The notes beneath the pieces are model-generated. The model saw nothing but the letters and a program-made list of their open reading frames with translations. It searched no databases and was not told where the DNA came from. 64,000 nucleotides of DNA, taken from assembly GCA_963840745.1 (NCBI GenBank), contig CAWJAC010000006.1:97947-161946 (forward strand). The letters are read 5' to 3'. Every line of letters begins with the position of its first letter. The stretch's first letter is position 1. Positions 9,890 through 60,933 of this stretch are shown in pieces. This DNA comes from Candidatus Zambryskiibacteriota bacterium (GTDB lineage Bacteria; Patescibacteriota; Minisyncoccia; Phycocordibacterales; WO2-35-19). The translations under genes and the position numbers were made by a program.

Positions 9890-10967
9890 ATGCAAAACAT
9901 TGCTTTAATAATATTGGCAGTAGGGCTGATTTTGGCTATTTTTGCTTTGCTCAGAAAAAAAGAAGAGCCCAAAAATAACGATACTGGTCTTAAACTCATC
10001 CTCCAGCAAATAAACGAACTCAATCGCACCGTGGATGCTAAAATCGGCGAAAATGCTCGCCAGACTAACGAAACAATAAAAACCCAGCTCGGCGAGTCCG
10101 CTTCGCTTATTCGCGAAGTGACAAAAGGTTTGACCAAATTGGACGAGACAAACCGCCAGGTGGTTTCTTTTGCCGACCAGTTGCAAAATCTGCAGGACAT
10201 TTTGAAAAATCCTAAACAGCGGGGAATTTTGGGCGAGTATTATTTGGAGACATTGCTCAAAAATGTTTTGCCGCCGGGGCAGTATCAGATGCAATATGCT
10301 TTCCCAAACGGCGAAATTGTGGACGCGGTGGTTTTCGTCAAAGACAAAATCATTCCGATTGATTCCAAATTTTCGCTGGAAAACTACAATCGTTTGACCG
10401 AAGCCAAAGACCCGGCGGAAAAAGAACGATTGGAAAAAGCTTTTTGTCAACGATTTGAAAGATGCGCATCACAGAAACGTCAAAATACATTCGGCCAGCC
10501 GAAAGGCACAATGGATTTCGCTTTCATGTTCATTCCGCACGAAGCGATTTATTATGATTTGCTCATAAATAAAATCGGGCGGAGTGACCGAGGATACCGA
10601 AAATCTGATCCAGCGCGCCGCCGGCAAGTATAAAGTCATCATCGTCTCGCCGACTTCTTTTTTGGCTTATCTGCAGACCGTTTTCCAGGGGCTGAAAGCC
10701 ATGCAGATAGAAGAAACGGCCAAAGATATCATCAAGCGCGTCGGTGAGCTCGGCGATCATTTGAAAAAATACGAAACATATCACAGCAAACTGGGGGCAT
10801 CTCTGGAAACGGTGGTCAATCATTTCAACGCTTCAAGCAAGGAGTTTAAAAAGGTGGATAAGGATGTAATGAGGATAACAGGTACGTCAGTTGAAATAGA
10901 AACGCCGCTTATTGAAAAGCCGGAGACGGAGAGTAGAAAGAGGGAAATAAAATTGTTCCTGCGTTAG
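9890..10967 (+). pseudogene. rmuC: DNA recombination protein RmuC, interrupted by about 4 frameshifts
   Basis: RmuC-like sequence is spread over three frames. Shifts occur at T5 10441-10445, the A-run 10458-10460, gaaagg about 10500 and the A-run 10571-10574. The conserved MDFAFMFIPHEAIYYDLL and KYKVIIVSPTSF blocks are present. Confidence 0.75.
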
Positions 10968-11006
10968 GTCGTAAGGATAAGGCTCTTGGAACAACATTAT
11001 TTCCCT
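10941..11006 (+). repeat. Conserved-loop hairpin, copy A (3' end of rmuC)
   Basis: 19-nt arms agggaaataaaattgttcc / ggaacaacattatttccct (17 of 19 paired). Loop tgcgttaggtcgtaaggataaggctctt. The rmuC stop TAG lies in the loop. Confidence 0.8.
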
Positions 11007-11050
11007 GTTTTCTTGCAGAAAATACAAAAATCCTGTAAAGTGGTATGACT

Positions 11051-11508
11051 ATGGCAGAAATAAGAGAAATCAAAACAACTCCACAGAGGCTGGGCCAAAG
11101 ACCCCTAAAACCAAGGGTACTTCAAAAACCACGAAGCTTAAGGCTGCTAAGAAAGCTCCTAGCGGCGGAGCTTTTGCCATAATTGAGACAGGTGGCAAGC
11201 AATACAGAGTGACTGTGGGGGATCTTATTAAAATTGAGAAAATGAAAGCCGACTCCGCCAAAGGCTCCGTCGAGCCGAAGAAAGGGGATTCGGTAATTTT
11301 TGATAAAGTTCTCTTGATTGACAATGGCATTGGTTCCACTGATATCGGCACGCCGTACATTGAAGGAGCCAAGGTTTCAGGTACTCTGGTTGAGATTGGC
11401 CGCAACGCCAAAGTTATGGTCATCAAATACAAACAAAAAAGCCGTTACTTCAAGCGCAACGGCCATCGTCAGCCATATTTCAAAGTTAAGATTGATAAGA
11501 TTGGATAA
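11051..11508 (+). CDS. rplU: Ribosomal protein L21 with a Lys-rich N-terminal extension; start uncertain
   Basis: AFAIIETGGKQYRV...KRNGHRQPYFKVKI. The ATG at 11051 is in a different frame from the conserved core, so there is either a frameshift or an unidentified start. Confidence 0.8.
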
Positions 11509-12770: not shown

Positions 12771-14149
12771 TTAAAACTCTCTAAACTCACTTTCGGCGCC
12801 GGTGAACTGGGCTTTTTCGAGCGGCTGGAATGTGACTCTCTTTTCATTAAAAAAGAGCTCGACTTTGCCAGTAGCGCCATTGCGATGTTTTTCAATCAAA
12901 ATTTCGGCTATATTTGTTTTCTCGGACTCCTCGGTATTTTTGGATTTATCTTCGCGGTGTATAAACATAACCAGGTCAGCGTCTTGCTCGATGGAACCGG
13001 AATCGCGGAGGTCAGAGAGTTTGGGTTTGCCGCCACGCTGTTCGACGGCGCGGGAAAGTTGTGAGAGGGCCAGCACCGGCACCTCCAATTCTCTTGCGAG
13101 ATTTTTTAAGGAGCGGGAAATTTCAGTCACTTGGTTGACCATTGAATCATAATTTTTGGTTGTCATCATGAGTTGTAAGTAATCTACCACAATGAGTCCC
13201 AAACCTTTTTCATTTTTGAGGCGTCTGGCGACTGAACGCATTTTCAAAATATTATTGCCCGGCTGATCATCTATGAAAATGGGCGCCTTTGAAAGAGTGT
13301 CCAAAGATTGCCTAATTGCGGCAAAATCATCTTCCCTGATGCCTTTGCCTGTACGCATTTTCCATGCATCAACGTTTGATTGGGCCGCCAGCATACGGTC
13401 TACCAATTGTTGGGAGCTCATTTCAAGCGAAAATATACCAACCGGAGTATTGTGATAAATGGCTGTTTGGCGGGCAATATCTAGGGCAAGAGCTGTCTTT
13501 CCGACCGAGGGTCTGGCCGCCAAAATTATGAGATCTGATTTTTGCAATCCGGAAAGTTTCTCATCCAATTCTTTGAAGCCGGTCGGCACACCTCGCAATC
13601 CGTCTCCGGAATTATGCAATCTATCGAGACGTTCCCATGCTTCGGCCAGTTCGTCTTTCATTTCCACGAACTTGTGAATGCTGGAAATGTTTGTGACATC
13701 GTAAATTTTCTTTTGAGCTTGATCCAAAAGCTCTTCTAGTTCTGCCGCTTCGTCATAACCGAGGAGGAAATATAATCAGCGGCGCCAATCAAATTTCTGG
13801 CTATGTGTTTTTTTTGAATTATCTGGGCGTAGTAAGTGGCATTGGCGGCTGAAGGCACGCAATTGACCAACTCGCCCAAATAACTGTTGCCTCCTATTTC
13901 ATCCAAAATATTTTTTTCTTTTAATCTGGCAGAGACAGTGAGCAAATCTGTCGGATTGCGCTTTGAAAAAAGTTCAAGCATTGTCTCAAATATCAGGCGA
14001 TGCTTTTCTGAATAAAAAGAAGTCGGATTAGCCAAGTCTGTAATTTCAAACATCACTTCTGGGCGGAGCATCACTGAACCAAGCAGAGCTTTCTCAGCCT
14101 CGGTATTATTCGGTGGAATTCTTATGTGAGTTTTTTTCTGAATGTCCAT
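12771..14149 (-). CDS. dnaB: Replicative DNA helicase DnaB (one apparent frameshift near 13758-13772)
   Basis: N-terminal domain ORF 13736-14149 and RecA-like ORF 12771-13727 (ARPSVGKTALAL Walker A) abut. A 1-nt shift restores ...ADYISSLGYDEAAELEELLDQAQKK... Confidence 0.9.
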
Positions 14150-16860: not shown

Positions 16861-16947
16861 AACCGGTGTCCAAACCCAGCTGCCGTATTCTTTGGCACTT
16901 TCTTTTGCCGGGGAAGTTGTTAGTAGTTTGGATGGCTTTAATCACCG

Positions 16948-17241
16948 CTAGCTATCTTGAGCAGTCGAAGGGCTCGTTAAAAAAGAGGATTTTGCTGAGA
17001 TATTATCAAAGGCAATATTTTTAAATTCTGGATTGGTCACTACGGCATTTTGGGTTATGTGACTATCGGAATATTGAGAAATTTTCGTATCTACCAGATC
17101 GCGGTGGGGGATTGAGGTGGGACTTTTTACCCGAAAAGATATTAATGTAACAAAAACCAAAATCGACAATAAACTTAGCAAAACAATTTTTTTAGCATTC
17201 CTCTTTGGTTTTTTACTTTTCACACTGTAATTATACCTCAC
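16948..17241 (-). CDS. N-terminal membrane-anchor fragment, probably of the same gene as 16015-16860
   Basis: 97 aa with a basic N-terminus and one TM helix. Separated from the downstream ORF by stops in two frames, so about 2 frameshifts would be needed. Confidence 0.35.
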   Translation of the reverse strand: MRYNYSVKSKKPKRNAKKIVLLSLLSILVFVTLISFRVKSPTSIPHRDLVDTKISQYSDSHITQNAVVTNPEFKNIAFDNISAKSSFLTSPSTAQDS

Positions 17242-17738: not shown

Positions 17739-18700
17739 ATGAAGAAAATTATATTAAGTTTGGCGGTTATTGCCGTTGTGGCGACAGTCGCCGTCGGCGC
17801 CACGAGAGCTTTTTTTAGCAGCACAGTAACTTCAGTTGGAAACACTATTTCTGCCGGCACAATTGATATTTCGGTAGATGGTGGTAATTGGGCCAATCAT
17901 TATGCAACAGATCTAGCCGATATGAAGCCGGGTATGACCAGAAACATTACTTTTACTGTTCACAATACTGGTACAAATCCTCTCGTACTTAGAAAGCAAC
18001 TCGGGAATTTTGTTTTTGGTAGTACATTAGGAAGCGATGCTGCTACTCTTTGTGCTAATCACCTTGTTTCTGGGACGGTCAGACATGTCGAGCAAATGAT
18101 ACTCTGGGCACATATTTGCCTAGCGTAATGACTTACGATATGACTGTTAGTTCATCAACTGGTCCAATTGTAATGATTCCAGAATCTTGGAATGTTAAAA
18201 TGAGTGATGTTAAAGATCTTTGGATTCCGTTGGGTATTGTTCAACCTGGTGCCACACTTACTGTCACACAAAGCTATCATTTTGACGAAGCAACAACCAA
18301 CTGGGCTCAGGGCGATACTTTGGCGTTTAATATAAGCTTGTATGCTGAACAGGTTGGCGGTCCTGGTCCTAACACAACCACTGGCGTAGTTTTGGACAAC
18401 AAGGATACTAATTCTTGGGCTTCATTAGTTGATGGAACACTAGGTATTTTGAGATGGGATGGTTCTAACTACACCATGAAAGCATTTGGTTTGGATAACA
18501 GCTTGACCTACCACGTAGCATACTGGAATGGTTCAACTGAAACTGCCATTGATGCTGTCACAGGAACACCCTCTAGTGGCAATCTGACTCTAACAGGAAC
18601 TTACTCTGGATTTGGTAATACTGGTGCCAAATATTGGTTGAGACCAAATACTTTTGACAATGTCAAAACTCTTTGGGAAGGAAATATTGCCAATCAGTAA
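17739..18700 (+). CDS. TasA/camelysin-like secreted protein with a SipW-type signal peptide (one apparent frameshift near 18059-18075)
   Basis: N-terminus GATRAFFSSTVTSVGNTISAGTIDISV, PGMTRNITFTVHNTG, and C-terminal WAQGDTLAFNISLYAEQ. ORFs 17739-18128 and 18116-18700 join after a 1-nt shift. Confidence 0.75.
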
Positions 18701-18755
18701 TTCTTGAATCCTTTGACCAAACCTCTCTTTGGGGGGTTTGGGATTAAGGATTTAT

Positions 18756-19295
18756 ATGAAAACCGCTTCTAAAATTTTGGAAAAAGTAATTTATACCATA
18801 ATAATTTTGGTTGCGGTGTTGCTCGTCTGGTCTATTTTGCCAGTCAAAAATGGCCCCAAAATTTTAACGGTACTTTCTGGTTCAATGGAACCGGCGATTC
18901 ATACAGGCTCCGTGGTGGTTATAAAACCAGAAAGCATATACAAAGATGGCGACGTAGTTACATTTGGTCCGGATACAAAAACTCAAATACCAACCACTCA
19001 CCGCATTGTTTCCAGTCGAGTACAAGATGGGGTGATGATATTTAAAACTCAAGGCGATGCCAATAATGCTCCAGATAGTACAGAAATACGCCAAAGCGAT
19101 ATTCACGGCAAAGTTTTGTTTGATATTCCTCTGGCAGGTTATATAATTGATTTTGTCAGAAAGCCATTGGGTTTGGTTTTGGTCATTGTCTTGCCGGCCA
19201 TTTTTATTGTTTGTGATGAAGTCAGGAAAATAATGGGAGAAGTGAAAACCCTTCGACAAGCTCAGGGTAAAAAAACAAATGAAGAAAATAAATAA
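18756..19295 (+). CDS. Signal peptidase I, SipW/archaeal (S26B) type
   Basis: SGSMEPAIHTGSVVVIKP (catalytic Ser), THRIV (His) and a C-terminal TM helix. AAGGA RBS sits before the ATG at 18756. Confidence 0.85.
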   Translation: MKTASKILEKVIYTIIILVAVLLVWSILPVKNGPKILTVLSGSMEPAIHTGSVVVIKPESIYKDGDVVTFGPDTKTQIPTTHRIVSSRVQDGVMIFKTQGDANNAPDSTEIRQSDIHGKVLFDIPLAGYIIDFVRKPLGLVLVIVLPAIFIVCDEVRKIMGEVKTLRQAQGKKTNEENK

Positions 19296-20670
19296 AATTT
19301 TAATCATAACAGTTTTATTTTTGGGTCTTGCATTTTTTGATATTCCAAAAACCTACGCTTTTTTTAATGCTACCGAAAGTTCAACCGGTAATACTTTTAC
19401 AGCTGGCGTTTTAGATATAGGTATTTCTGGTGTAAATGTTTCTGATATAGTACTTCCGGAAAATTCTACCAGCACAATAATTACGATATCAAAAACAAAT
19501 CCGACAAATTTGGATTATCAATATTTTGCCAGTACGACGATTACCGACACCGACCAAACTGCTTGCGATTACATCACAATCTTGGCATCAAGCTCGCCTC
19601 AAATTATTTCCGTTCCTTTGAAAAATTTTATATCCGCCACAAGTTCTCCAACCGGTTTGGCACTTTGGGATTTTACATTTACAATTGCCAGCGTTGTTCC
19701 GACTAGCGATTTGGGCAAAATATGTCATTTCAAAATTTCTTACACCGCCTGGCAAACAAACCTACCAAACAATTCGCAGGGTTTCAGCGATGTCGCCGAA
19801 ATGACCGGTTCAATCCAAATCGGAACAGTGCCAAGTGTGCCAGATGTTGTATTAAATGAAATCTTACCAAATCCAGAGGGTACTGATAGTGATCCAATGC
19901 CAAACGGAGAATGGGTGGAATTATATAATAATACTAACTCACCGATTAATTTGAATGGATATTATTTGACTGATGCAGATAATCATAGGATTGATGTGGA
20001 GAGTTGTAGAATTATTGGCGGAAATACAACTATTTACGGCAAAGGATTTTTGGTAGTTTATAGAAAAGGTATTGGTACAGATTGCACATCTCATAATTTT
20101 GAACTTAATGACACAGGAGATACCGTGAATTTTTATAGTCCTACTGGGGCGTTGATTGATTTTTATACTTATGTCGGTAGTGCGACAGATGCTGATTCTA
20201 TTTCAGATAATACTCTGGGTTCCAGTAATAGTTTTACTGGCACAGAAAGTCCAGCACAGGAAGGTAAATCTTTTGCTCGCATTCCGGACGGCACTGGCAT
20301 CTGGGTGGACCCGATACCAACACCAGGTGAGCCGAATAAAATAGAAGAAAACATGCCTTTAACGGCTCAAATGGCAGGAAATGAGCCGTTGGTTGAAGAA
20401 ATAGCCACAACAACCCAGCCTTCGCTAGAAACTTCCGACGTCGCTGAAGCTATGCCTGACAAGACGGCGGACGAAGCAGAACCGGTTGCAACCACGACTG
20501 AAAATGTTATTTTGGATAATGCCACAAGTTCGCCAGAGATTATAACTGAACCTGAAGCATCGGAGGGATGTCAAAGTCGGACTTTGACACTTGACGAGCC
20601 ACAAGAAACATTGGCTCCTGAAATGGAGACAACAATAACAGAACCAGTCATAACTGAACAAACCATATGA
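19279..20670 (+). CDS. Secreted protein: TasA-type signal/N-domain + lamin-tail domain (LTD) + acidic Pro/Thr/Glu-rich tail
   Basis: AFFNATESSTGNTFTAGVLDIGISG. LTD signature VVLNEILPNPEGTDS...GEWVELYNNTNSPINLNGYYLTD. Overlaps the sipW stop. Confidence 0.7.
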   Translation: MKKINKILIITVLFLGLAFFDIPKTYAFFNATESSTGNTFTAGVLDIGISGVNVSDIVLPENSTSTIITISKTNPTNLDYQYFASTTITDTDQTACDYITILASSSPQIISVPLKNFISATSSPTGLALWDFTFTIASVVPTSDLGKICHFKISYTAWQTNLPNNSQGFSDVAEMTGSIQIGTVPSVPDVVLNEILPNPEGTDSDPMPNGEWVELYNNTNSPINLNGYYLTDADNHRIDVESCRIIGGNTTIYGKGFLVVYRKGIGTDCTSHNFELNDTGDTVNFYSPTGALIDFYTYVGSATDADSISDNTLGSSNSFTGTESPAQEGKSFARIPDGTGIWVDPIPTPGEPNKIEENMPLTAQMAGNEPLVEEIATTTQPSLETSDVAEAMPDKTADEAEPVATTTENVILDNATSSPEIITEPEASEGCQSRTLTLDEPQETLAPEMETTITEPVITEQTI

Positions 20671-21833: not shown

Positions 21834-22327
21834 ATGAAGCTTAAAATTGCTATTGCTTGTTTGGTAGTGTTGGTTGTTTTGGTGGGGACAGTGCCTTCTT
21901 TTAGGGCGCCGGTTCTTGATTCTCTCTCGGCTATTTATGCTTCAGTCTTGTGGGTCTGACAAATCAAAACAGGGCAGCGGCCAATGTCTCGCAGCTGACC
22001 GTCAGTCCGATTCTAGAAAAAGCCGCCCAAATGAAAGCTGATGATATGGCAGCCAAAGGTTACTTTGCTCACAATACCCCGGAGGGCAAAACCCCTTGGT
22101 ATTGGTTTGACCAAGCTGGTTATAAATACATTTATGCTGGAGAAAATTTAGCAGTTAATTTTGAAAACAGCGCTGATGTGGAAACCGCTTGGATGAATTC
22201 CCCCGGCCATTTCCTCAATATTATGAATCCCAAATTTACTGAAATAGGCATCGCCACATCAACTGGTATGTATAAAGGTAGGCAAGCGGTATTTGTCGTC
22301 CAGATGTTTGGCGCACCGAACAAATAA
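21834..22327 (+). CDS. CAP/SCP/PR-1 (YkwD-like) domain protein with an N-terminal TM helix (apparent frameshift near 21948-21953)
   Basis: LTNQNRAAANV...GHFLNIMNPKFTEIGIA is a CAP domain. The TM-encoding ATG at 21834 is in another frame. Confidence 0.7.
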
Positions 22328-49956: not shown

Positions 49957-49984
49957 GTTTAGATTGTAGTATACTTTTTAATAT

Positions 49985-51172
49985 TTAGCGAATTTTCGCT
50001 TCGTAAGCTTCGGCTGTTTTTTGCTCCAATTTTTTGTGCATTGTGTCAACCTCGGTGCTAGTTAAAGTCCCTTCAAGGGAGCGATAAACAATCCTGTAAG
50101 CATAACTTATTTTGTCTTTGCCAATTTTTGCTTCATTTTCATATTTATCAATCATTTTTACCTCCTCAACAATATCTTCCCCGATTGTTTCCCGGATCAA
50201 ATCAAAATAATTATTTGGTACGAAATCCTTGCCCACCACAAAGGAAATATCGCGGACTACGGGCGGATATTTACTGACTTCTTTGTATTTTTGGCCGAGT
50301 TTAAGCTGTTTTTTGACCCGAGCATCTTCTGACCAAAGAAGCCTTATATCGGGCAATTCCATGCTGATCAGGGCCAGTCTTTCAAGTCCAAAACCAAAGG
50401 CCCAGCCGTTATAAATATTTGAATCTACACCAAGATTATCCAAAACTTTGGCCTTGACCACACCACTGCCCAAAACTTCTACCCATTTGTCGTCTTTTTC
50501 AATTTCCATTTCCAAGCTTGGAGTTGTGAACGGAAAAGTGTCTTCGTTGAATTTATATTTCACATCTTTACCGAAGACCGCTCGAGCAATTTCAATCAAC
50601 ACATTTTGTAAATCTTCGGTAGTAATAATTTTTTCGTCTTTGCGACAAAGAAACCAACCATCAATTTGATGGAAAACATTCATATGGTGTCGATCTATTT
50701 CGTCTTTTCTATAAACTTTACCATAACTGAAACAACCAACACTTTCTCCTTTTTTTATTCTCTCTTTGATTTCTGGAAGCTCCGTGTAGTAATACCACAT
50801 TATGGTAGTGTGAGTGCGTAAAATATGCTCGTCATCCGTATAATAAGTATCTGATTTGCTTCTGGTGGGATGATCTTTTGGAAAATCAAATAAATCAAAA
50901 CTAATATCAGCCGGCACTATTTCAGGATTTTTAATGACATCAAGATTGGACATTTCCGGAATATTCAAAATTCTCTGGACAATTTCGTATATGGGGTTGC
51001 CGGGAGCACGCGACAAGTCTGGCATACTTAAATAGCGCTTCATGCGCATAGCATCGGCGTCTTCTCTTTTATCCAGACTTTTAATCAGGGCTTCTTCCTG
51101 CCCGGCCGGCACTTCGTATTGATTTCTTTGCATAACCTTCATTCTAAATAAAAACGTGCTAAAATTCAACAC
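49985..51172 (-). CDS. pheS: Monomeric (mitochondrial FARS2-like) phenylalanyl-tRNA synthetase: PheS catalytic core fused to an FDX-ACB anticodon-binding domain
   Basis: HPTRSKSDTYY, FHQIDG and GWAFGFGLERLA class II motifs. The C-terminus KYPPVVRDISFVV...YAYRIVYRSLEGTLTSTEV closely parallels the human FARS2 C-terminal domain. Confidence 0.8.
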   Translation of the reverse strand: MLNFSTFLFRMKVMQRNQYEVPAGQEEALIKSLDKREDADAMRMKRYLSMPDLSRAPGNPIYEIVQRILNIPEMSNLDVIKNPEIVPADISFDLFDFPKDHPTRSKSDTYYTDDEHILRTHTTIMWYYYTELPEIKERIKKGESVGCFSYGKVYRKDEIDRHHMNVFHQIDGWFLCRKDEKIITTEDLQNVLIEIARAVFGKDVKYKFNEDTFPFTTPSLEMEIEKDDKWVEVLGSGVVKAKVLDNLGVDSNIYNGWAFGFGLERLALISMELPDIRLLWSEDARVKKQLKLGQKYKEVSKYPPVVRDISFVVGKDFVPNNYFDLIRETIGEDIVEEVKMIDKYENEAKIGKDKISYAYRIVYRSLEGTLTSTEVDTMHKKLEQKTAEAYEAKIR

Positions 51173-51802
51173 ATGGATTCGACAAGCTCACCACAAGTGT
51201 ATAAAAAAGGCTTTTCTTCAGATGAATTCGAAGAATTAAAAGATTCCATTATTGAACAAGGTTTTGAATATAAAAAAGTGAAAGTGGAGGATGCTCTAAG
51301 AGAAACCATTCCTTTTTGTATGGATGCCGTTTATAAAAATCCGTCTTCTATGCGTACCGATGCTCCGCAAGCTTTCAGTTGTTCATCTCTTATAAGCTAT
51401 CTTTATGTGCAAGCCGGAGTTTGGATGCCATCGCTCTCTATTGATAAATATGTTTTTGGCACTCCCATATCAAAAGAGGAATTGAAATATGGTGATCTGA
51501 TTTTTTCAAACAGCGGTAACGGTCGTGTCAGATACGAAACAGTTGAATATTTGCCGGAAACCAAAGTACCCGACGGTGTTGATCATGTCGGTATGTATTT
51601 GGGAAAAAACAAAGTAATTCACGCCACAAAAAAACACGAAAAAGTAGTAATAGAAACTCTGGATGATTTTAGAAACACTTCAAAAATAGTGGGATATAGA
51701 AGAGTGGCTGATATTGACGAGGAAAGATATGTGGTATCCATGCCAGACGACAGAGTTGATTTGTTAAAAAAGAGTAGCAAAGCGCTTGTAAATTTGCTAT
51801 AA
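51173..51802 (+). CDS. NlpC/P60 (C40) family peptidase
   Basis: Catalytic Cys context FSCSSLISYLY, then GDLIFS and HVGMYLGKNKVIHA. Confidence 0.75.
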   Translation: MDSTSSPQVYKKGFSSDEFEELKDSIIEQGFEYKKVKVEDALRETIPFCMDAVYKNPSSMRTDAPQAFSCSSLISYLYVQAGVWMPSLSIDKYVFGTPISKEELKYGDLIFSNSGNGRVRYETVEYLPETKVPDGVDHVGMYLGKNKVIHATKKHEKVVIETLDDFRNTSKIVGYRRVADIDEERYVVSMPDDRVDLLKKSSKALVNLL

Positions 51803-51812
51803 TGAAAGGGTA

Positions 51813-53873
51813 ATGGCAAAAGAAATTAAGGTTAAAAAGAGCAGTTATAGCGCCGAAAACATTACTGTTTTGGAGGGGCTAGAGCCGGTGCGCCGAAGGC
51901 CGGGGATGTACATTGGCACCACCGGTCCGGATGGTTTGCATCATTTGGTAGTGGAAATTTTTGACAATTCCCGTGATGAAGCGATGGGTGGTTTTGCGAA
52001 TGATATTGAAGTAGCCTTCCTTCCTGGCAATCGCGTTAGGGTAGTTGATAATGGTCGCGGCATTCCCGTTGATATTCATAAACAGACAAAAGTTTCAGCC
52101 CTTGAGACAATTATGACCACTCTCCATGCTGGAGGAAAATTTGGAGGAGAGGGTTACAAAATTTCCGGTGGTTTGCACGGAGTGGGAGCTTCGGTAGTAA
52201 ATGCTCTCTCTGTTTATATGCGCGCAGAAGTTCATAAAGATGGAGGAATTTATGTCCAAGAATACTCAAAAGGTAAAAAGAAAGCGTCTGTAAAAAAAGT
52301 CGGCTCTTCAAAATTGCACGGTACCATCATCACTTTTGAGCCGGATCCGGAAATATTTAAAGAAGGAGTAAATTTTGATTTTGAAAGAGTAGTCTATCAT
52401 ATGCGTCAGCAGGCTTATTTGGTCAAAGGTCTCAAAATATCCGTTTTGGATTTCAGAGAAACCAAAGAAAAAATAAAAGATACCGAAACTTTTTATATGA
52501 GGGATTTGGGATTGGAGGCTCCGTCAATGACATTCTACTTTGACGGCGGGCTGGTTTCTTTAATACGATTTTATAATCACAACTCAGAAACCGATCCATA
52601 AAAATATTTTTTATGTTGAAAAGACAAACGAAAATTTTGAAGGCGTAGAAGTGGCTCTGCAGTATGTGGATGATATTTCGGCGCGCATTATGCCCTTCGC
52701 CAACAATATTTATACCAGTGAGGGCGGCACCCACACTACCGGCTTCAAGACGGCTCTAACTAGAACTTTAAATAATTATGCCAAGAAAAACAATCTTGCT
52801 AAAAACGGAGATGATGTTTTTACAGGAGATGATGTCTTGGAAGGATTGACTGCTGTCATTTCAATCAAGCTGCGAGAAGTGCAATTTGAAGGCCAAACCA
52901 AAGCCAAACTCGGCAGTGTGGAAGCTCGCGGTATGGTAGAGAGTATTTTTGGAGAAGCTTTTGACGCATTCTTAGAAGAAAATCCCGACGACGCCAGAGC
53001 GATTATTAATAAAGTTGTTTTGGCTCTGCGCGCACGCAAGGCGGCTAAAGCAGCCAAAGATTCAATTTTGAGAAAAGGAGCTTTGGAAGGTATGACACTT
53101 CCGGGCAAACTAGCCGATTGTCAGAGCAAATCAGCAGAGGAATCCGAGCTCTTCATTGTGGAGGGAGACTCGGCCGGAGGCACTGCCAAAACAGGCCGAG
53201 ATAGGAAGAATCAGGCTATATTGCCTTTGCGCGGCAAGATTTTAAATATTGAAAGAGCGCGACTTGACCGTATGCTCGGTTCGGAACAAATTAAAAATTT
53301 GGTGGTGGCTCTTGGCACAGCCATAGGAGATACTTTTGATTTGTCTAAATTCGTTATCATAAAATAATTATAGCTACCGATGCCGACGTGGACGGCGCTC
53401 ATATTCGTACTCTCATTCTGACTTTGTTTTATCGATATTTCAGGCCGATTATTGATGGGGGATTTATTTATATCGCTCAGCCGCCTCTTTATAAAATTAA
53501 AAAGGGTAAAGAAGTACATTATGCTTACAGTGATGATGAGAAGGCTAGAATTATTGGGCGTTCCAGTGCCGAGGTTGACGAGATTGAACTTCCCGCTGCC
53601 GAAGTTGATCGTTCCGCTGCCGATGTTGACGAGTCTGAAAGCACTTCCAAAACTCCTAAAGTTTTAGTCCAGCGCTACAAAGGTCTCGGAGAAATGAATG
53701 CCGAAGAACTTTGGGAGACCACTATGGATCCAAAGAGACGCATCTTAAAACAAATAGCAGTTGAAGACGCTCAGGAAGCCGACCGCATTTTTGATGTGCT
53801 CATGGGCTCCGACGTCCCCGCTCGCAAATCTTTCATCCAGTCCAACGCTAAGCTGGCAACTATTGATATTTAA
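51813..53873 (+). CDS. gyrB: DNA gyrase subunit B (two apparent frameshifts, about 52586-52590 and 53347-53353)
   Basis: GHKL ATPase motifs ([22 protein letters not shown]) and Toprim ([17 protein letters not shown]). Three collinear ORFs. Confidence 0.95.
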
Positions 53874-53879
53874 AAAAAT

Positions 53880-54227
53880 ATGAAAGAAAGATTCGGACCA
53901 TGTGTAGATAAAAATTGTTCAACTTGTTGTGATCCAGTTAAAGTTGCAAGATTTTTTCCAAAAGAAAAAATTCCGAAAGATGCAGATGGTAATGATTTGT
54001 GGCAAAAAAGAGAAGAATTGTTAATTCCACAGGATCAACCTGAAGAAACAAAATTAGAAACTTATGATTGCAAAAACTTTAATCCAAAAAGTGGACTGTG
54101 CAAAGACTATGAAAATAGACCGGATATTTGTCGAAAAGCCGGATGTATAGATAAAGACTCAGCAGAATCAGAAGAATATCAATTTAAAAAATTAAGTGAG
54201 CAGAAATTTATAAAGATAACGCCGTAA
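53880..54227 (+). CDS. YkgJ-family Cys-cluster (CxxCxxCC-type) protein
   Basis: C-x4-C-x2-CC (CVDKNCSTCCDPV) plus a second Cys cluster (CKNF..CKDY..CRKAGC). Confidence 0.6.
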   Translation: MKERFGPCVDKNCSTCCDPVKVARFFPKEKIPKDADGNDLWQKREELLIPQDQPEETKLETYDCKNFNPKSGLCKDYENRPDICRKAGCIDKDSAESEEYQFKKLSEQKFIKITP

Positions 54228-54236
54228 AAATTTGGC

Positions 54237-55327
54237 ATGAAAAAGAAAATTAAAGTAGGCATTCTCTTTGGGGGCAAATCAGCTGAACACGAGGTATCTT
54301 TGCAGTCGGCAAAAAATGTAGTTGACGCCATTGATAAAGACAAGTATGAAGTTGCTCTTATAGGAATAGATAAAACGGGTAAATGGCTACTTCCAAATAA
54401 ATCCCAATTTTTGCTTAATGCAAATGACCCAAAACTGATTAAATTAAACAAAGCAAGCGAGGAAAGCGTTGCCCTTGTCCCACAAAGCGGTGGTGAATTA
54501 ACTAATCTATCAAACCAAAACTCAAATTATTCCGTAGATGTCGTTTTTCCAATACTACACGGTCCGTTTGGAGAGGACGGCACAGTTCAGGGGCTACTAA
54601 AATTGGCGGGAGTTCCTTTTGTTGGGGCAAGTATCCTTGGCTTGCGATTGGAATGGATAAAGATGTGATGAAAAGATTGCTACGAGATGCTAATATTCCT
54701 ATTGCTGATTTTCTCGCTTTCAAACGGAAAGACAAGATTAATTTTGAAGAAATATCAAAAAAATTAGGACTTCCGTTTTTTGTTAAGCCAGCTAATCTTG
54801 GTTCTTCCATTGGAATTAACAAGGTGAAAAACAAAAAAGATTTTCCAAAAGCTGTAAAAGAAGCATTTCAATATGATACAAAGATTATCATTGAAGAATA
54901 TATTCTCGGCAGAGAGCTTGAATGTTCTGTGCTGGGCAATCAAAACCCGGTTGCTTCTGCTGTAGGAGAAGTGATACCACATCAAGAGTTTTATTCTTAT
55001 GAAGCAAAATACATAGACGAAAATGGTGCTACCCTCGAAATACCTGCCAAAATAAATTCCAAAACTGTTAAAGGTGTTCAGGAACTAGCAATAAAGACAT
55101 TCAAAACTCTTTCTTGTGAAGGATTAGGTAGAGTAGATTTCTTTTTGAAAGATAACGGAAAATTGATTGTAAATGAAATAAATACAATTCCCGGATTTAC
55201 AAAAATCAGTATGTATCCTCGCCTTTGGGGAGCCAGTGGTATTTCCTATACAGAACTCATAAATCGTTTAATTGAACTCGCGATTGAGCGTTTTAAGCGA
55301 GAACAAAAAATCAAAACTTCTTATTAG
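54237..55327 (+). CDS. ddl: D-alanine--D-alanine ligase (apparent frameshift about 54638-54646)
   Basis: GGKSAEHEVSLQSA, ATP-grasp motifs GSSIGI and EINTIPGFT. Two collinear ORFs. Confidence 0.9.
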
Positions 55328-55340
55328 TAAAGATAAATTA

Positions 55341-57094
55341 TTATTTCTTTTCTTTGATTTCTTTTTGGAGGAGATCCAAGAATTTTTCTGCTGGCATTGA
55401 GCCGAGTTTTTTACCTTCACCATCACCGCGCACTTCAACTGTGACTTCTTTTGATTCAACCTCTTTATCACCAAGCACTATCCAGTAAGGAATCTTTTCA
55501 TTTTTGGCAGCACGGACTTTTTTGCCTAAATTTTCATCCTCCAAATCAACTTCAGCTCTGATGCCATTTTCTTTCAGCAAATCATAAACTTCTTGTGCAT
55601 AAGCATTGTGAGATTCCGCACCGGTATCACTTTAACCTGCATGGGCGAGAGCCAAAGAGGAAAGTTGCCGGCGTAGTGTTCAATAAGTATTCCCATAAAT
55701 CTTTCAAATGAACCAAAAATGGCAACATGCAAAACAACAACCCGGTGTTTTTTACCGTCTTCACCGGTGTAATCCATATCAAAATTTTCCGGCTGATTAA
55801 AGTCCAGTTGTATAGTAGTCAGTTGCCATTCTCGGCCAATTGAATCTTTCACTTTTATATCTATTTTGGGTCCGTAAAACGCTGCTTCACCTTCTTCAAT
55901 ACTATAGGCTACACTCCATTTTTTAACTTGCTCAATTAAAATTTGCTCAGCTTTTTGCCAAACATCATCGGCCCCAAAATATTTTTCTTTATTTTTTGGA
56001 TCTCTTATCGAAACTTCTACTTTATAGTCATTGAAGCCAAAAATTTTATAAACTTTCTGCATTAACCCTAAAATCATTTCAATTTCGGATTCGATTTGAT
56101 CCCCACGAATAATGTGATGGGTATCATCTTGGCATAAACCTTTAACTCGCAGTAGTCCGGACAATTCTCCACTTTTTTCGTTTCTATAGACTGTTGTGTT
56201 CTCGGCTATGCGCAAAGGCAAATCACGATAACTGTGTGGCTCCGCGTTGTAAATTTCAAAATGATGCGGACAATTCATAGCTTTTAATACAAATTCTTCA
56301 CCATTGTCATCTTTCATAATCGGCATCATGGCGTCGTATTTACCCAAGTGGCCACTACGAATGTAGAGTTCTTTCCTGGCAATGTGGGGAATTGTTACAA
56401 AAGAATATCCAAGTTTTTCTTTTTCAGAACGGATGAAATTTTCCAATTCGGTCCGGATTATGTTGCCTTTTGGTAAATACATAGGTAAACCTTTGCCGAC
56501 TAATTCGGAAATAGTGAATAATTTCATTTCCTTGCCTAATTTTTTGTGGTCACGCTTTTCGGCCTCTTCTTTCATGTGCAGATATTCATCCAATTTTTCT
56601 TTTGATTCAAACGCCAAACCATAAATGCGGGTCAGCATTTTATTTTTCTCGTCTCCGCGCCAATAAGCGCCGGCGATTCTCTCAAGCTTCCAAGAATCTT
56701 TTGGAATTTCATCAGCGTCTGAGACGTGGCCACCAACACAAAGATCTGTGAACTCTCCGGAAGTATAAAAAGAAATATTTTGACCATCTTTTTCTAAATC
56801 TTTTATAAGTTCAAGTTTATATTCGTTTTTTTCAAAAAACTTTTTGGCTTCTTCTGTGCTCACTTCCTTGCCTTCAAATTTTACCCAAGTTTTCAAAACC
56901 TGCCTCATCTTATTTTCAATCTTTTCCAGATCATTTTCTGAAATAGGGGATGAAAAATCAAAATCATAATAAAATCCGTTATCAATGACCGGCCCGATGG
57001 TTGGCTTGGCATCCGGATACAGCTCCAGTACCGCAGCCGCCAGTAAATGCGCCAACGAATGCCTAACCTTCTCAATTTTTTCCTCTTTTGACAT
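55341..57094 (-). CDS. thrS: Threonyl-tRNA synthetase lacking the N-terminal TGS domain (apparent frameshift about 55616-55624)
   Basis: Starts at the editing-domain HSLAHLLA motif. Class II core (FRNE-like VYRNEKSGELSGLLRVKG). The anticodon-binding domain is split off by a 1-nt shift. Confidence 0.9.
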
Positions 57095-57103
57095 AAATAA
57101 ATA

Positions 57104-60100
57104 TTACAACTTCTTGGCTTTTTCGGCAATGAGAGTTTTTTCGCCATTGCGCAGGGAGACGCGGGCTTTGATGGCAATACATTGGTCGGGAACAAAGACG
57201 GAAGAAAATTCCTGCAGAACGCGGGGAAAACGACAAGTTCGATTTCGTCAGTCAAGTCAACAAATTTAATGAAAAACATTTTGTCTCCGTTTTTGGTCAA
57301 AATGTCTCGCATATTTTCGATGAGTCCGCCAACTATCACCACTTCGTTCTCTTTAGACTTTTCTTTTATATTTTTTATACTATTTTTTTGACTCCCTAAT
57401 TTGTCTTTAAATTGATCCAGTGGGTGGCCGGAGATGTACAAGCCTAAAAGTTCTTTTTCCCAAGCTAGCCGTTCGGCCACAGTAGCAGGATTTGATGGTA
57501 TTAAGTGCAAAGGCGAATATCCGGTTGTGGCAGCAAAAAGCGAACTTTGGTCCAGATTGGCCGCCGATTCTTTGCTGTATTCCAAAAGGATATCGGTGTT
57601 GGAAAGCAAAAGACCTCTTTCGCCAAAATTGTCAAAAGCGCCGGCTTTAACCAAAGCTTCCAGAGATTTTTTATTCAAATTTCTGTCTTGAATTCTAGTT
57701 AAAAAATCTTCAAGCGATTTAAACTTTCCTTTTTCTTTTCTTTCAGCAGTAATGATGTGGGAAATGCCTTCTCCAAAATTTTTGATGGTAGTTAGTCCAA
57801 ACCTAATAGTCTCGCCTTCATTTTTTATTTCTGATTCATTTTTCTTAACCAGAGTAAAATCAGAAAAACTTTCATTGATATCAGGTGGCAAAATTTCAAT
57901 ACCCATGCGCTTGCATTCGGTAATAGAAGTTGCCACTTTTTCGGTATCTCCCGATTCGGCTGAAAGTACTGCTCTCATGTATTCTCCGGGAAAATTAGCT
58001 TTGAGATACGCAGTCTCATAAGCCACTCGACCGTAAGAGACGGAATGGGCCTTGTTAAATCCGTAAGCGGCAAAAGGTTCTATCCAACTCCAAATTTGCT
58101 TGGCCTTTTTCTCGCTCCAGCTAGAATGTTCCATACATCCTTTGATAAATTTTTCTCTTTGCTTTTCCATTTCTTCCGGAATCTTTTTACCGACCGCTTT
58201 ACGGAATTTATCGACTTCGCCCCAAGTATAGCCAGCCAATTTGTTGGCCATCATAAGCAAGTCGTCTTGATAAACCAAAATACCGTAAGTTTTTTCAAGT
58301 ATGGGCTCCAGAGCCGGATCAAGATAAGTGATCTTTTTGGGGTCATGTTTGCGAGCAATATAATCGGGAATAAATTGCATCGGTCCTGGACGGTAAAGGG
58401 CCACCATAGCATTTATGTCATGGATGGCTGTGGGCTTGAGTTCCACCAAAAATCTGGTCATACCGTCACCGTTGAGCTGAAATAGGTCTTCAGTTTCGCC
58501 TCGAGCCAACATCTCAAAAGTTTTTTTATCGTTAATGGGCATTTTGTCCAAATCTATCTCTACTCCTTTGGTTTTTTTAATAAGTTCAAGAGTAGCCGCA
58601 ATAATAGAAAGGTTTTTAAGCCCCAAAAAATCAAACTTCAAAAGTCCGGCGGCATTTTCATCAATACTATACATATCGTACTGAGTGATTATTTTTCCCT
58701 CGCCTTTGGGATCGTATTGAAGGGGAGTGAAGTCGGTCAAATCAGTCGGGCTAATGACCACGCCAGCTGCATGGACACCAATATGGCGCGCGCAGCCTTC
58801 TATTTTTTTTGCCATATCTATAATTTTTTTTGAATCCGGATCTTTTTTATAGAGTTCCGTAAGCTCCGGCACTTCATTTAAGGCACGATCAATGGTCATA
58901 GGGAAACCTTGCTGACCCATGGGTATGAGTTTGGCTATCCTGTCTCCGATTGTATAAGCGAAACCGAGCGCCCGAGCCGTATCGCGCACAGACCCTCGAG
59001 CCATCATTGTGCCGAATGTTCCTATCTGGGCAACTTTATCTTCGCCATATTTATGTTTTACATATTCAACCATTTCGTCACGCCTATCGTCAGCAAAGTC
59101 CATATCAATATCTGGAGCAGAAGGCCGATCTGGATTTAAAAATCTTTCAAAAGGTATTTCGTACTCAAGCGGATTTATATTTGTAATGTGAGCGGCATAA
59201 GTTGCAAGAGAACCGGAAACCGAGCCTCTGATATTAGTTAAAATACCATGCTCGTGAGCATAATTCATAAGATCAGCCACTACCAAAAAGTAAGGTGAAT
59301 AGCCTTTCGTTTTTATAACATTAAGCTCATATTCTAATCTCTCTATCACTTCCTTGCTTTTAGGAAGCCCGCGATCTTCCAATCCATCATAAGCAAGATC
59401 GTGTAATTCATCATCATAACTTTTTCCTGACTCGACTTTAATGTCAGGAAAAGACCATTTACCAAGTTCCAGTTCAAGATTGCAGAGAGCGGTTATTTTG
59501 TGATTATTAAAAATAGCTTCTGGATAATTTACAAATCTCTCCTTAACCTCTGCTTCGGAAATAAAAGAAAAGTCTTCATCTTCATTATTCCAAGCTCCTC
59601 TTTCTGCCCCGATGGCCATCGGGGCACCTTGGCTTACAGCCATAAGAGTATCTTTAGCTTCTTTATCTTCTGGTGCAATGTAATAAACATCATGACAGGC
59701 CACAATAGGCAGCTCTTTTTCTTTGGCAAACTCGGTCAATGTATTCATGTGTTCGTTATGGCCGATAAGCTCCGGATGCATAGTGATTTCAATATAAAAA
59801 TCGCCACCATCATCATTTGAAAAAATTTTCTTATACTTTTGCACTAATTCATTGGCCAGCTCAATATTTTTATTCCTAAGAGCAGTAGAAATATCTCCGC
59901 TCCAAGATGAAGAAATGCAAATGAGCCCTTCTTTATATTTTTCCAAAAGTTCAAAATCAATGCGAGGTTTGTAATAAAATCCTTCTAAATAGGATGCCGT
60001 CACCAGCTTCATTAGATTTTTATATCCAATCTCATTTTTGCAAAGCAAAATTAATCTGAACCTGTCTTTATCAACACCGGCCTGCTTATCAAAACGGGTG

Positions 60101-60315
60101 CGGCTGGCTAGGTATGCGTCAACTCCAATAATTGGTTTAATACCAGATTTTTTGCACTCCTTATAAAACTCAATGGCGCCGTACATATTACCATTATCCG
60201 TAAGCGCTAGAGTCTCCATCTCATTTTTTTTGGCCGCTTCAATAAGCTCTGGAATTTTGGGTAAAGCCTGAAGGAGGGAATAGTGGGAATGGGTGTGTAG
60301 GTGAGTGAATTTCAT
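57104..60315 (-). CDS. dnaE: DNA polymerase III alpha subunit DnaE (apparent frameshift about 57220-57230)
   Basis: PHP domain FTHLHTHSHYSLL and a PolIIIA core. After a shift at ttttcccc the C-terminus reads ...VVFPRVLQEFSSVFVPDQCIAIKARVSLRNGEKTLIAEKAKKL, stopping at 57104-57106. The track ORF extension to 56905 is an artefact. Confidence 0.95.
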
Positions 60316-60337
60316 ATATAGCAGTATAATACAAAGT

Positions 60338-60933
60338 ATGAAATATGTTTACGGAGTAGATGAGGCGGGTAGGGGGCCACTGGCAGGGCCGATTACGCTT
60401 GCGGCATTTTCGGCACCTCAAAATTTTAGAAACAAATTAATAAAAATATTGGGGGTAAAATAAAAGATTCAAAACAATTCTCGGCAAAGAGAAGAAAAGA
60501 AATTTACAAAGATCTTTTGATATTAAAAAAGGAAGAAGAAGTAGATTTTAAAGTTTCTCATATTTCAAATAAAATAATAGATAAAAGAGGTATTAGTTAT
60601 GCGACAAATCTGGCAATAAAAAGAGTGTTCGTCAATACTAAACGCTCAGCGTCTAATAATGATGCGGTAAGGCTTGACGGATTATTGAAAGCGCCGTCAA
60701 AATTTAAAAATCAGAAAACGATTATAAAGGGTGATGAAAAAGATGTTTTCATTGCCTGCGCATCTATTGTCGCCAAAGTTCGCAGAGACCGCCTGATGTG
60801 CCGTATGGCAAAAAAATATCCTCAATATAGCCTTGAAATTCACAAGGGTTATGGTACAGTGTTCCACCGCCTCCTTATTCAAAAACACGGCCTATCTGGA
60901 ATTCACCGCAAGTCGTTTTGTACACACATTTAA
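60338..60933 (+). CDS. rnhB: Ribonuclease HII (apparent frameshift in the G5 run at 60451-60455)
   Basis: GVDEAGRGPLAGP, DSKQFSAKRR, and GDEKDVFIACASIVAKVRRD motifs across two frames. Confidence 0.85.
60633..60659 (+). repeat. 27-nt palindromic repeat element, copy 3, inside the rnhB coding sequence
   Basis: caatactaaacgctcagcgtctaataa matches the reverse complement of 5588-5614 at 25 of 27 positions. Encodes NTKRSASNN in frame. Confidence 0.7.

Follow-up and report, generated by a model that had tools for sequence, protein, structure and literature searches.

Pseudogene-rich decaying genomes, such as those of Mycobacterium leprae and of recent endosymbionts, spare essential genes, carry mixed types of lesion and show relaxed constraint. 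Slipped-strand phase variation, as in Neisseria, Haemophilus and Mycoplasma, acts through tandem repeats in the 5' coding regions of genes for surface or secreted proteins. In metagenome-assembled genomes (MAGs) from Nanopore reads, indel frameshifts inflate both pseudogene and coding-sequence counts, and correction matters more at low coverage (PMC8103633). Nearby allelic variants that are collapsed into one long-read consensus have been found to give rise to indel errors (Cosentino et al. 2021, PMC8445201).

Here we report 26 frame changes across 18 genes, detected from ORF fragments, profiles and alignments in a window of 64 kb (the whole stretch of DNA that was analysed) on a 173,941-bp contig of an uncultured member of the Patescibacteria (Parcubacteria, Zambryskibacteria-like). 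The window resembles long-read assemblies and MAGs that are unpolished or of low coverage (PMC8103633; Kastor, PMC12007338), in which single-base indels fragment conserved genes, counts of coding sequences and pseudogenes are inflated, homologue-guided repair restores the genes and the fragments reach databases. It differs from those cases in that its sites are not dominated by homopolymers, in that insertions at non-repetitive positions make up half of the testable errors, and in that the sequencing platform is here only presumed. With genomes of the Mycobacterium leprae type the window shares its many frameshift-interrupted genes, whereas the sparing of essential genes, the mixture of lesion types and the relaxed constraint are absent from it.

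The initial annotation had described about 25 single-base frameshifts in at least 15 genes between positions 9890 and 60933, and all 25 were reproduced from fragments, profiles and homologues, in 17 genes; an additional site lies beyond that range, in rpmF at about 61500. All 26 breaks are shifts of ±1 nt (12 of insertion type, 14 of deletion type), and none is a lone in-frame nonsense codon or a larger lesion, the sole in-frame stops (in the GH-like gene and trxB) being located within short out-of-frame stretches between compensating shifts. Homology is found on both sides of the break at 19 sites, whereas seven are recognized from gene architecture alone (two in the pfkB-family kinase gene, two in the GH-like gene and one each in rplU, the CAP gene and the transglycosylase-like gene), that is, from a missing start codon or the domain architecture, with no reference spanning the break. 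The sites are as follows, with a caret at a missing base, brackets around an extra base and a slash at the rejoined position.

rmuC, shift 1: 10441-10445, plus strand; extra T (T5, where T4 restores ...EKAF/VNDLKD...)
rmuC, shift 2: 10464-10467, plus strand; extra base in GATGCGC, repair giving ...LKD/RITETSKYIRP...
rmuC, shift 3: 10502-10504, plus strand; extra A (A3, where A2 restores ...RPAE/GTMDFAF...)
rmuC, shift 4: 10577-10579, plus strand; extra G (G3, where G2 restores ...LINKIG/GVTEDTENLIQ...)
rplU (L21): 11052-11179, plus strand; one missing base within the interval, moderate evidence
dnaB: 13763-13764, minus strand; one missing base, TCCTC^CTCGG, homologues reading ISSLGYDE
GH-like gene, two shifts: 16934-16951, minus strand; missing base at about 16950 and extra base at about 16936, moderate to weak evidence
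TasA/CalY-like gene: 18066-18069, plus strand; one missing base, CTTG^TTTCTGG
CAP-domain gene: 21920-21956, plus strand; one missing base, from the three-frame view, moderate evidence
trxB, shift 1: 23084, minus strand; extra A, GAT[A]GATAAT
trxB, shift 2: 23042-23045, minus strand; missing A (A4, where A5 restores ...DTIKTKTVLMATG...)
ftsZ: 24154-24157, minus strand; one missing base, GCGGG^CTT, from Pfam and the three-frame view
nrdD, shift 1: 34248, plus strand; extra A, GACTC[A]GAGTC, absent from Logan contig L088
nrdD, shift 2: 34785-34786, plus strand; extra G, CTTGGAAAT, repair giving ...AKESLEIKRKTLERF...
nrdG: 35964, plus strand; extra C, ACATT[C]GCCATGG, absent from Logan contig L001
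pfkB-family kinase gene, shift 1: 41465-41468, minus strand; missing base directly after ATG 41470, moderate evidence
pfkB-family kinase gene, shift 2: 41424-41426, minus strand; missing base, TTTATA^GGCTC, repair giving ...TTDAFIRLKDAKV...
Transglycosylase-like gene: 43186-43214, plus strand; +1 shift within a perfect (TTTTCTG)x4.1, moderate evidence
gyrB, shift 1: 52578-52582, plus strand; extra base, ATCA[C]AAC, from DNA alignment to related locus L083 and blastx
gyrB, shift 2: 53349-53351, plus strand; missing base, TCTAAA^TTCG, from alignment to L083 and blastx
ddl: 54642-54643, plus strand; missing C, GGCT^TGCG, from comparison with L083 and L084
thrS: 55612-55616, minus strand; missing base between the catalytic core and the anticodon-binding domain
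dnaE: 57220-57230, minus strand; missing C, TTTTCCCC^GCG
rnhB: 60451-60455, plus strand; missing base in or beside a G5 run, repair restoring ...KILGGKIKDSKQFS...
rpmF (L32): 61499-61501, plus strand; extra base, CAT[G]GCG, outside the range of the initial annotation

Each listed gene is split into ORF fragments that abut or overlap in different frames and together spell out one protein. Matches to Pfam profiles carry on across the breaks in RmuC (2-187, then 185-272), DnaB (the N domain in one fragment and DnaB_C in the next), TrxB, FtsZ (Tubulin 1-171, then FtsZ_C), NrdD (NRDD 1-161, 152-320 and 300-562 in successive fragments), GyrB (HATPase_c; DNA_gyraseB with Toprim 1-37; Toprim 55-95 with GyrB_C), Ddl (N domain, then C domain), ThrS and RNase HII (2-36, then 34-198). 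In a blastx comparison with the ORFs of 80 related loci, one and the same subject was matched in consecutive frames at gyrB, thrS, dnaE, rnhB, nrdD and nrdG, with 40-41 subjects at each of the two gyrB junctions (41 at shift 1) and 40 at the thrS junction, which is also marked by Pfam (core, then anticodon domain) and by DNA alignment. The same multi-frame scan of 12 related loci (~250 kb) gave no junction with more than one supporting subject, and therefore the number of breaks in the window exceeds chance. Two further "frameshifted genes" proposed by blastx on the minus strand, at 62963-63626 and 47378-47706, were rejected as antisense shadow ORFs of rnc/smc and tsf, respectively, given the synteny with L002 and L083, and a compensating pair at 62241/62258 was discarded as alignment noise in a divergent segment.

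Among the individual genes, the four rmuC shifts were placed from the three-frame view and tblastn with the full-length RmuC references P0162, P0163 and P0156, and the junction of the TasA-like gene by alignment to P0426-P0431. In dnaB, residues 8-131 of PDB entries 2r6a/2vye align to the N fragment and residues 129-443 to the C fragment, while in ftsZ the site is spanned by AEAGLEELRQ in the JGI FtsZ proteins P0020 and P0021 (90-95% identical). The two trxB shifts are a compensating pair, with Pyr_redox_2 matched at 1-87 and then 98-285 in the same frame and 17 codons between them that can be read only in another frame. In rpmF the lysine-rich tail AKLAKKEKRAKEKEKESR is in the other frame, and the gene is in frame in Logan contig L085 and in the relatives L083, L002, L003 and L007. 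The final 41 residues of DnaE lie in the other frame, and the resulting false ORF extends 190 nt into thrS; the closest relative, L002, reads TTC CCC CGC at this site, C5 as compared with C4 in the window.

Upon examining the sites recognized from architecture, we find that ATG 11052 of rplU is out of frame with the L21 domain, which starts at about 11170 (L21p 2-99 at residues 65-174 of the stop-to-stop ORF), and that in the three-frame view the L21 frame holds no start codon from the domain back to the stop at about 10978. Similarly, in the codon listing of the pfkB-family kinase gene the frame reading VDFISIGD has no start codon, PfkB 10-299 begins at residue 10 of the main ORF, and the main fragment (40486-41433) matched no PDB chain at E ≤ 1e-15. 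The break in the CAP gene falls between a signal/TM segment, in the frame of the 21834 ATG, and the CAP domain (CAP 2-117, beginning at residue 12 of the downstream ORF). The GH-like gene has no Pfam match, and in the three-frame view it contains two in-frame stops one codon apart (TAG CGG TGA, 16950-16942). In the transglycosylase-like gene, which has a weak SLT_2 match, the shift separates ATG 43157 (MKKYSFIFGIF...) from a 461-aa ORF, and deletion of either one heptamer or one base restores the signal peptide and joins this ATG to the main ORF.

The affected genes include the essential single-copy genes dnaB, ftsZ, gyrB, dnaE, thrS, ddl, rplU and rpmF. Orthologous genes, the comparison that the initial annotation had proposed, are in frame at dnaB, the tasA-like gene, gyrB, ddl, thrS, dnaE, rnhB and rpmF. 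Upon one-base repair, single ORFs are obtained for FtsZ (385 aa), DnaB (459 aa), TrxB (304 aa), RmuC (357 aa), NrdD (723 aa), Ddl (363 aa), RnhB (198 aa), DnaE (1070 aa) and L32 (75 aa). More than 100 DnaB proteins of 457-469 aa match the repaired DnaB with 90-93% identity and 99-100% coverage, and the merged 320-aa TasA-like protein reaches 100% coverage in alignments with TasA/CalY proteins of 305-335 aa. The nine repaired proteins had no exact look-up match, which is uninformative with short Logan contigs and with a DnaB query reading SSSGY where the homologue reads SSLGY. Exact look-ups of RecR, FtsA and a 463-aa ORF likewise returned no match, possibly with other starts having been chosen by the gene caller. 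Separately, a metagenome contig scan with the 463-aa protein (19279-20670) found one distant locus, and a concatenated five-gene homologue query returned only long intein-containing DnaB proteins.

We next compared the window with other assemblies. Six Logan contigs, all from run ERR10755942, match 19.4 kb of the window at 99.8-100% identity and cover six of the frameshifts, of which three are absent from Logan (nrdD 34248, nrdG 35964 and rpmF at about 61500) and three are common to both assemblies (the tasA-like gene in L090, dnaE and rnhB in L085). For instance, L001 encodes an intact 232-aa NrdG. The Logan contigs carry at least two private frameshifts in turn, in rpiB (window position 37558) and in a CxxCxxCC gene (A6 to A5, window position 54004), and additionally one deletion at a contig end; agreement between Logan and the window is therefore not independent confirmation, because Logan is itself error-prone at this rate (at least two per 19.4 kb). 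Logan contig L089 stops 4 nt short of the ddl site, which is located in a 1.3-kb block (54030-55370) that is 99.6% identical to L083 and L084; both encode an intact 363-aa Ddl, from which the window differs at this site by one missing base. In total, four sites are absent from near-identical DNA (nrdD shift 1, nrdG and rpmF against Logan, ddl against L083/L084). As a further reference, the more distant relative L087 (from a "contig_NNNN" ENA assembly) was rejected, being 72-84% identical in nucleotides and itself heavily fragmented, and a literature search on ERR10755942 found no paper.

The DNA downstream of the shifts keeps purifying selection in the original frame. After removal of base 34248, NrdD is identical to that of L088 at 424 of 424 residues, and all 12 nucleotide differences between them, five of which lie downstream of the shift, are synonymous. 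In gyrB, the comparison with L083 gives omega values of 0.05, 0.03 and 0.11 across the three restored segments, and thus relaxed selection downstream of the lesion is absent in nrdD (all differences synonymous) and in gyrB (omega 0.03-0.11). The 12 synonymous SNPs of nrdD fall within 520 nt, and the population is clearly heterogeneous. A strain variant lies within 10 nt of three of the four sites that are absent elsewhere (34243/34248, 61498/61499 and 54633/54643), which is similar to the collapsed alleles of Cosentino et al. 2021 (PMC8445201), on a basis of four sites only; unlike in that diploid eukaryote, the "alleles" would here be co-existing strains of a metagenome.

We also investigated the sequence context of the breaks, which the initial annotation had attributed to homopolymer-type error. 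This attribution is only partly right: 4 of the 19 placed sites touch homopolymers of at least 4 nt, a chance level (16.4% of positions expected; P = 0.38) and thus no enrichment, and only G/C runs are in mild excess (2/19 placed sites against 1.3%, P = 0.026). Most break intervals contain no homopolymer of this length, the homopolymer length spectrum of the window equals that of related loci, and both G/C-run sites (dnaE and rnhB) belong to the trio that recurs in Logan. About 80 A/T runs of at least 7 nt are apparently intact in the window; because of this and of the missing enrichment, the pattern is not the classic homopolymer-dominated signature of Nanopore R9. The sites are locally clustered, with eight pairs lying no more than 150 nt apart where 1.4 would be expected (P = 3.5e-4), and rmuC holds four insertions inside 140 nt. 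On the larger scale, the unevenness (no sites at 1-10.4, 24.2-34.2 and 43.2-52.6 kb) is not significant after local clusters are collapsed (P = 0.15), and by eye no shared motif, such as a methylation site, is seen around the placed sites, CCATGG lying beside two only.

Taken together, the frame breaks are very probably indel errors of the assembly or consensus in an error-prone metagenome assembly rather than biology. This agrees with the initial annotation, which had read them as errors and not pseudogenes, in that the second assembly disagrees at three of six sites, selection is purifying, the repairs have the length of orthologues, all shifts are ±1 nt, fall in essential single-copy genes and form local clusters, and the relatives are clean. 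The contig would be a consensus with about one single-base indel error per 2.5 kb, presumably built from error-prone, most likely long, reads of several closely related strains, with no accurate short-read polishing. Each error would shift the frame of a normal, functional gene, and gene callers would then produce two to five fragments per gene or, as in dnaE, a false extension. Two classes of error may be involved: non-systematic insertions, often near strain-variable positions and differing between assemblies of the same population, and deletions in short or longer runs that recur in both assemblies and are probably systematic. We infer that the three Logan-shared deletions (tasA-like, dnaE and rnhB) are also errors, of the systematic kind; they would be real if run ERR10755942 were both accurate and independent.

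An unlikely alternative is that most of the shifts are errors and a minority are genuine population variants, the candidates being those in the tasA-like gene, the last 41 codons of dnaE, rnhB and the heptamer of the transglycosylase-like gene. The dnaE, rnhB and tasA-like shifts recur unchanged in L085 and L090; rnhB and TasA-like fibre proteins are often dispensable, and an altered DnaE tail might be tolerated. Against this, the Logan contigs make errors of their own, the DnaE tail, although out of frame, retains 85-95% identity to relatives, the loss of one C from a run of five is a classic undercall context, and the over-represented G/C runs at dnaE and rnhB are both Logan-shared. As in phase-variable loci, the signal-peptide region in the 5' coding part of the transglycosylase-like gene holds a perfect heptanucleotide repeat, its unit length not divisible by three, and gain or loss of one unit switches the frame, one unit amounting to +1; unlike in such loci, the heptamer has only about four copies, and 25 other shifts on the contig are not repeat-associated. 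A search for a near-identical contig covering the heptamer at 43.2 kb found none. That (TTTTCTG)n is a real on/off slipped-strand switch, and that at least one of the shared shifts (tasA-like, dnaE tail or rnhB) might be a true variant, is rather improbable; if true, the switch would represent a phase-variable surface or secreted enzyme in an episymbiont of the CPR/Patescibacteria.

Real inactivating mutations, in a decaying genome or in a defective lineage where pseudogenes build up, are exceedingly improbable. In nature, genes are inactivated most commonly by frameshifts, and three of the shifts are present in two assemblies, but dnaB, ftsZ, gyrB, dnaE, thrS and ddl are hit together, and their joint loss is not viable. 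Lone nonsense codons, larger deletions and downstream erosion are missing, near-identical DNA lacks half of the testable shifts, and the dense cluster of insertions in rmuC is not a mutational pattern. Finally, it is likewise exceedingly improbable that the cell decodes the shifts by means of programmed ribosomal frameshifting, slippage during transcription or a non-standard code. A few sites lie in short runs (T5, A4, C4, G5) that could conceivably allow slippage, whereas orthologues are in frame at every comparable site and thus offer no conserved recoding site, slippery or homopolymeric context is missing at most sites, +1 and -1 shifts both occur, stop-codon reassignment cannot explain breaks that are frame changes and not in-frame stops, and the release factor beside rpmE is a separate RF1-like gene without an internal shift. 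The in-frame stop between 45040-45285 and 45289-46218, considered as a candidate, is the end of rpmE before this RF1-like gene and not a recoding or prfB-type shift.

If the breaks are consensus errors, as we consider very probable, their consequences are already visible, with fragments of the split genes standing as separate entries in public protein collections; the DnaB N fragment, both TrxB fragments, NrdD fragment 1 and GyrB fragment 1 are representatives of 90%-identity clusters. The false pseudogenes and spurious overlaps foreseen by the initial annotation would number about 18 in the case of pseudogenes, or else about 40 spurious short proteins would be called, together with the false 190-nt overlap of dnaE and thrS. 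Estimates of genome completeness are expected to be distorted by the split genes, and the record requires polishing or frameshift-aware correction before use. Overall, the significance of the frame breaks is practical and not biological, and it would be unsafe to conclude from the MAG that this CPR lineage has lost genes or has a reduced metabolism.

We found that the frame breaks exist as the initial annotation had claimed: ORFs taken stop-to-stop in all six frames across the window gave collinear fragments in differing frames at every locus that it named, and ORFs, Pfam, blastx and references together yielded, for the range that it covered, 25 sites spread over 17 genes. Beyond that range, rpmF (L32) has a further frameshift at ~61499-61501, where the gene stays in frame in four relatives and in L085, a contig from Logan's assembly of run ERR10755942. 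With rpmF included, 12 sites are of insertion type and 14 of deletion type, and all lesions are ±1 shifts. When 12 related loci (~250 kb) were put through the same multi-frame scan as a control, no junction had more than one supporting subject. Domain continuity, read from Pfam profile coordinates from one fragment to the next, was as follows.

rmuC: Pfam RmuC 2-187, then 185-272
dnaB: DnaB N domain, then DnaB_C
trxB: Pyr_redox_2 1-87, then 98-285
ftsZ: Tubulin 1-171, then FtsZ_C
nrdD: NRDD 1-161, 152-320 and 300-562
nrdG: Radical_SAM within the first NrdG fragment
gyrB: HATPase_c; then DNA_gyraseB and Toprim 1-37; then Toprim 55-95 and GyrB_C
ddl: Ddl N, then C
thrS: tRNA-synt_2b, then HGTP_anticodon
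rnhB: RNase_HII 2-36, then 34-198

Seven sites were judged by gene architecture rather than against a reference spanning the break.

rplU: 1 site; L21 domain without a preceding in-frame start codon
CAP gene: 1 site; signal segment and domain in different frames
GH-like gene: 2 sites counted; two stops with one codon between
pfkB: 2 sites; VDFISIGD frame without a start codon, ATG in another frame
transglycosylase-like gene: 1 site; ATG at 43157 and 461-aa ORF in different frames

In a blastx search of the window against the full ORF set of 80 related loci, we observed consecutive HSPs in different frames to one subject for gyrB, thrS, dnaE, rnhB, nrdD and nrdG, with 41 and 40 subjects at the two gyrB junctions, 40 at thrS, 6 at dnaE and 4 at rnhB. 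Geobacillus DnaB structures align with the N fragment through residues 8-131 and with the C fragment through residues 129-443, and the TasA-like protein, once merged, can be aligned end to end (100% coverage) with TasA/CalY proteins of 305-335 aa. Full-length RmuC references bear out exactly the four rmuC breaks of the initial annotation, as one-base insertions inside 140 nt (10441-5, ~10464, ~10503 and ~10578), and reading the conserved RmuC peptides FVNDLKD and RITETSKYIRP requires a shifted frame in each case. The trxB shifts form a compensating pair with 40 nt between them.

We consider it very likely that these are assembly indel errors rather than pseudogenes, as had been proposed, given the disagreement with a second assembly, the purifying selection, the one-base repairs and the ±1-only pattern. 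After one-base repair, nine genes become single ORFs of orthologue length. Without base 34248, NrdD is identical at 424/424 residues to the version in L088, another Logan contig, and all 12 nucleotide differences between the two are synonymous, five of them 3' of the "frameshift", within the restored frame, so the downstream part has been under purifying selection in its original frame in the window's lineage. For gyrB, omega against L083, a contig from another sample, is 0.05, 0.03 and 0.11 in the three restored segments, and the final 41 residues of DnaE, out of frame in the window, are 85-95% identical to relatives.

Six Logan contigs, 99.8-100% identical to the window, together cover 19.4 kb of it.

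L001: window 35314-38717
L085: window 55876-63259
L086: window 47985-51880
L088: window 32197-34711
L089: window 53468-54639
L090: window 17854-18892

Three of the window's surplus bases are missing from these contigs: the A at 34248 in nrdD, the C at 35964 in nrdG and the base at ~61500 in rpmF. The genes are intact there, with a 232-aa NrdG, an NrdD frame that stays open over at least 424 aa and an in-frame L32 tail. Both assemblies share the deletions in the TasA-like gene, in dnaE and in rnhB. Breaks private to Logan, at places where the window is intact, are an insertion plus mismatch in rpiB (L001 2244 = window 37558), one A lost from A6 to leave A5 in the CxxCxxCC gene (L089 537 = window 54004) and a deletion inside thrS 5 nt from the contig end (L085 5 = window 55880). 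Over these 19 kb, window and Logan, drawn from essentially one population, thus differ at 5 or 6 positions that break a frame; neither assembly is therefore an accurate reference, and ERR10755942 is unusable as truth since its contigs hold frame-breaking indels of their own. Their private indels, about one per 6-10 kb, are far above the expectation for accurate short reads, from which we infer an error-prone run; its data are probably long reads, and may even be those from which the window's contig was built. The three window-private sites are all insertions where the sequence is non-repetitive, and the three shared ones are all deletions lying within or beside short runs (for dnaE, TTC CCC CGC in the closest relative versus TTCCCC-GC in the window), a pattern consistent with consensus errors of a non-systematic kind together with systematic under-calls. 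Between dnaE (1136-aa ORF) and thrS, the apparent 190-nt overlap (56905-57094) results from the dnaE frameshift; repaired dnaE stops ~10 nt ahead of the thrS start, likewise in L083 and L084.

Next, we examined the sequence context, where the homopolymer origin suggested by the initial annotation was not supported: 4 of the 19 placed sites touch a run of at least 4, versus 16.4% of positions (P = 0.38), and most break intervals have no such run. A mild excess was seen only for G/C runs (2/19 sites versus 1.3%, P = 0.026). The homopolymer length spectrum of the window equals that of related loci, and ~80 A/T runs of at least 7 are apparently intact. The profile is one of mixed small insertions and deletions, often ±1 on runs of one to three bases. 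Sites cluster locally, with 8 pairs within 150 nt versus 1.4 expected (P = 3.5e-4), which fits poor-consensus patches and not independent mutations. At three of the four sites absent in near-identical sequence, a strain variant lies within 10 nt (34243/34248, 61498/61499 and 54633/54643); in collapsed haplotypes of long-read assemblies, nearby allelic variants have been documented to cause INDEL errors (PMC8445201). Indel-driven frameshifts have likewise been documented to inflate pseudogene counts in Nanopore MAGs, where frameshift correction mattered more in low-coverage contigs (PMC8103633; on indel frameshifts in MAGs, see also PMC12007338).

At strain level, the window diverges unevenly from the Logan contigs, with the 12 nrdD differences falling within 520 nt (34006-34526) and a single difference in the 3.9 kb of 47985-51880 against L086, around pheS and a glycosyltransferase gene, which suggests co-existing strains with recombination. 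The ddl gene with its flanks (54030-55370, 1.3 kb) is 99.6% identical to L083 (ERZ28655897 WOOD18-1 scaffold_1583) and L084 (ERZ27254251 k141_307924), both from other samples and both with an intact 363-aa Ddl, the window carrying four substitutions and lacking one C. The neighbouring gyrB, thrS and dnaE are just ~73-89% identical between these contigs and the window, and the ddl block looks like a recent recombination or transfer between related Parcubacteria species.

A few sites might be real, namely the three deletions present in window and Logan contigs alike and the shift within the heptamer repeat of the transglycosylase-like gene. There, the signal-peptide coding region (43186-43214) holds a perfect (TTTTCTG)x4.1 repeat, in which gain or loss of one unit switches the frame, and the gene minus one heptamer gives MKKYSFIFGIFLFSVFCHLLLCSAQ... 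This could be slipped-strand phase variation; a short-tandem-repeat assembly error is the simpler reading, because 25 other shifts share the contig. Recoding is excluded, since relatives' orthologues keep the frame wherever a site could be compared, the shifts go in both directions and a slippery context is missing at most sites. Genome decay with real pseudogenes is excluded by the purifying selection downstream, the ±1-only lesions, the second-assembly disagreement and the essential genes broken, which include dnaB, ftsZ, gyrB, dnaE, thrS, ddl and two ribosomal protein genes; their joint loss is incompatible with life. A reassigned stop codon cannot explain the breaks, which are frame changes.

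Elsewhere in the window (G+C ~40%), an S24/S26-type signal peptidase gene (18717-19292) comes after the TasA/CalY-like gene (region 17739-19295), an order that resembles the Bacillus tasA-sipW arrangement. The tRNA-Pro(GGG) called by ARAGORN at 6025-6096 is below the Rfam tRNA gathering score, which the other four tRNAs reach, and might be an atypical tRNA or a further indel error in an RNA gene.

The closest DnaE and DnaB relatives are MAGs labelled Patescibacteria, Parcubacteria or Candidatus Zambryskibacteria, with identities of 81-87% for DnaE (best segment) and 90-93% for repaired DnaB. A related CPR contig, L087 (ENA ERZ1286166 contig_6445, 107,871 bp), has extremely fragmented called genes, with FtsZ in pieces of 61 aa and 117 aa and many products of 38-89 aa, and seems to represent a related organism in a far noisier assembly. 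By exact protein matching, the window proteins place on one 173,941-bp NCBI/ENA contig, under which many pieces of broken genes are entered as separate proteins. In the public library, cluster representatives include several window fragments (P0018, P0024-P0027), and the best-scoring RmuC representatives, P0153 and P0155, have out-of-family C-terminal ends, the former looking frameshifted and the latter chimeric. With the frame breaks read as an artefact, their interest is practical and not biological: the reference protein sets for the window's lineage are polluted by frameshift fragments.
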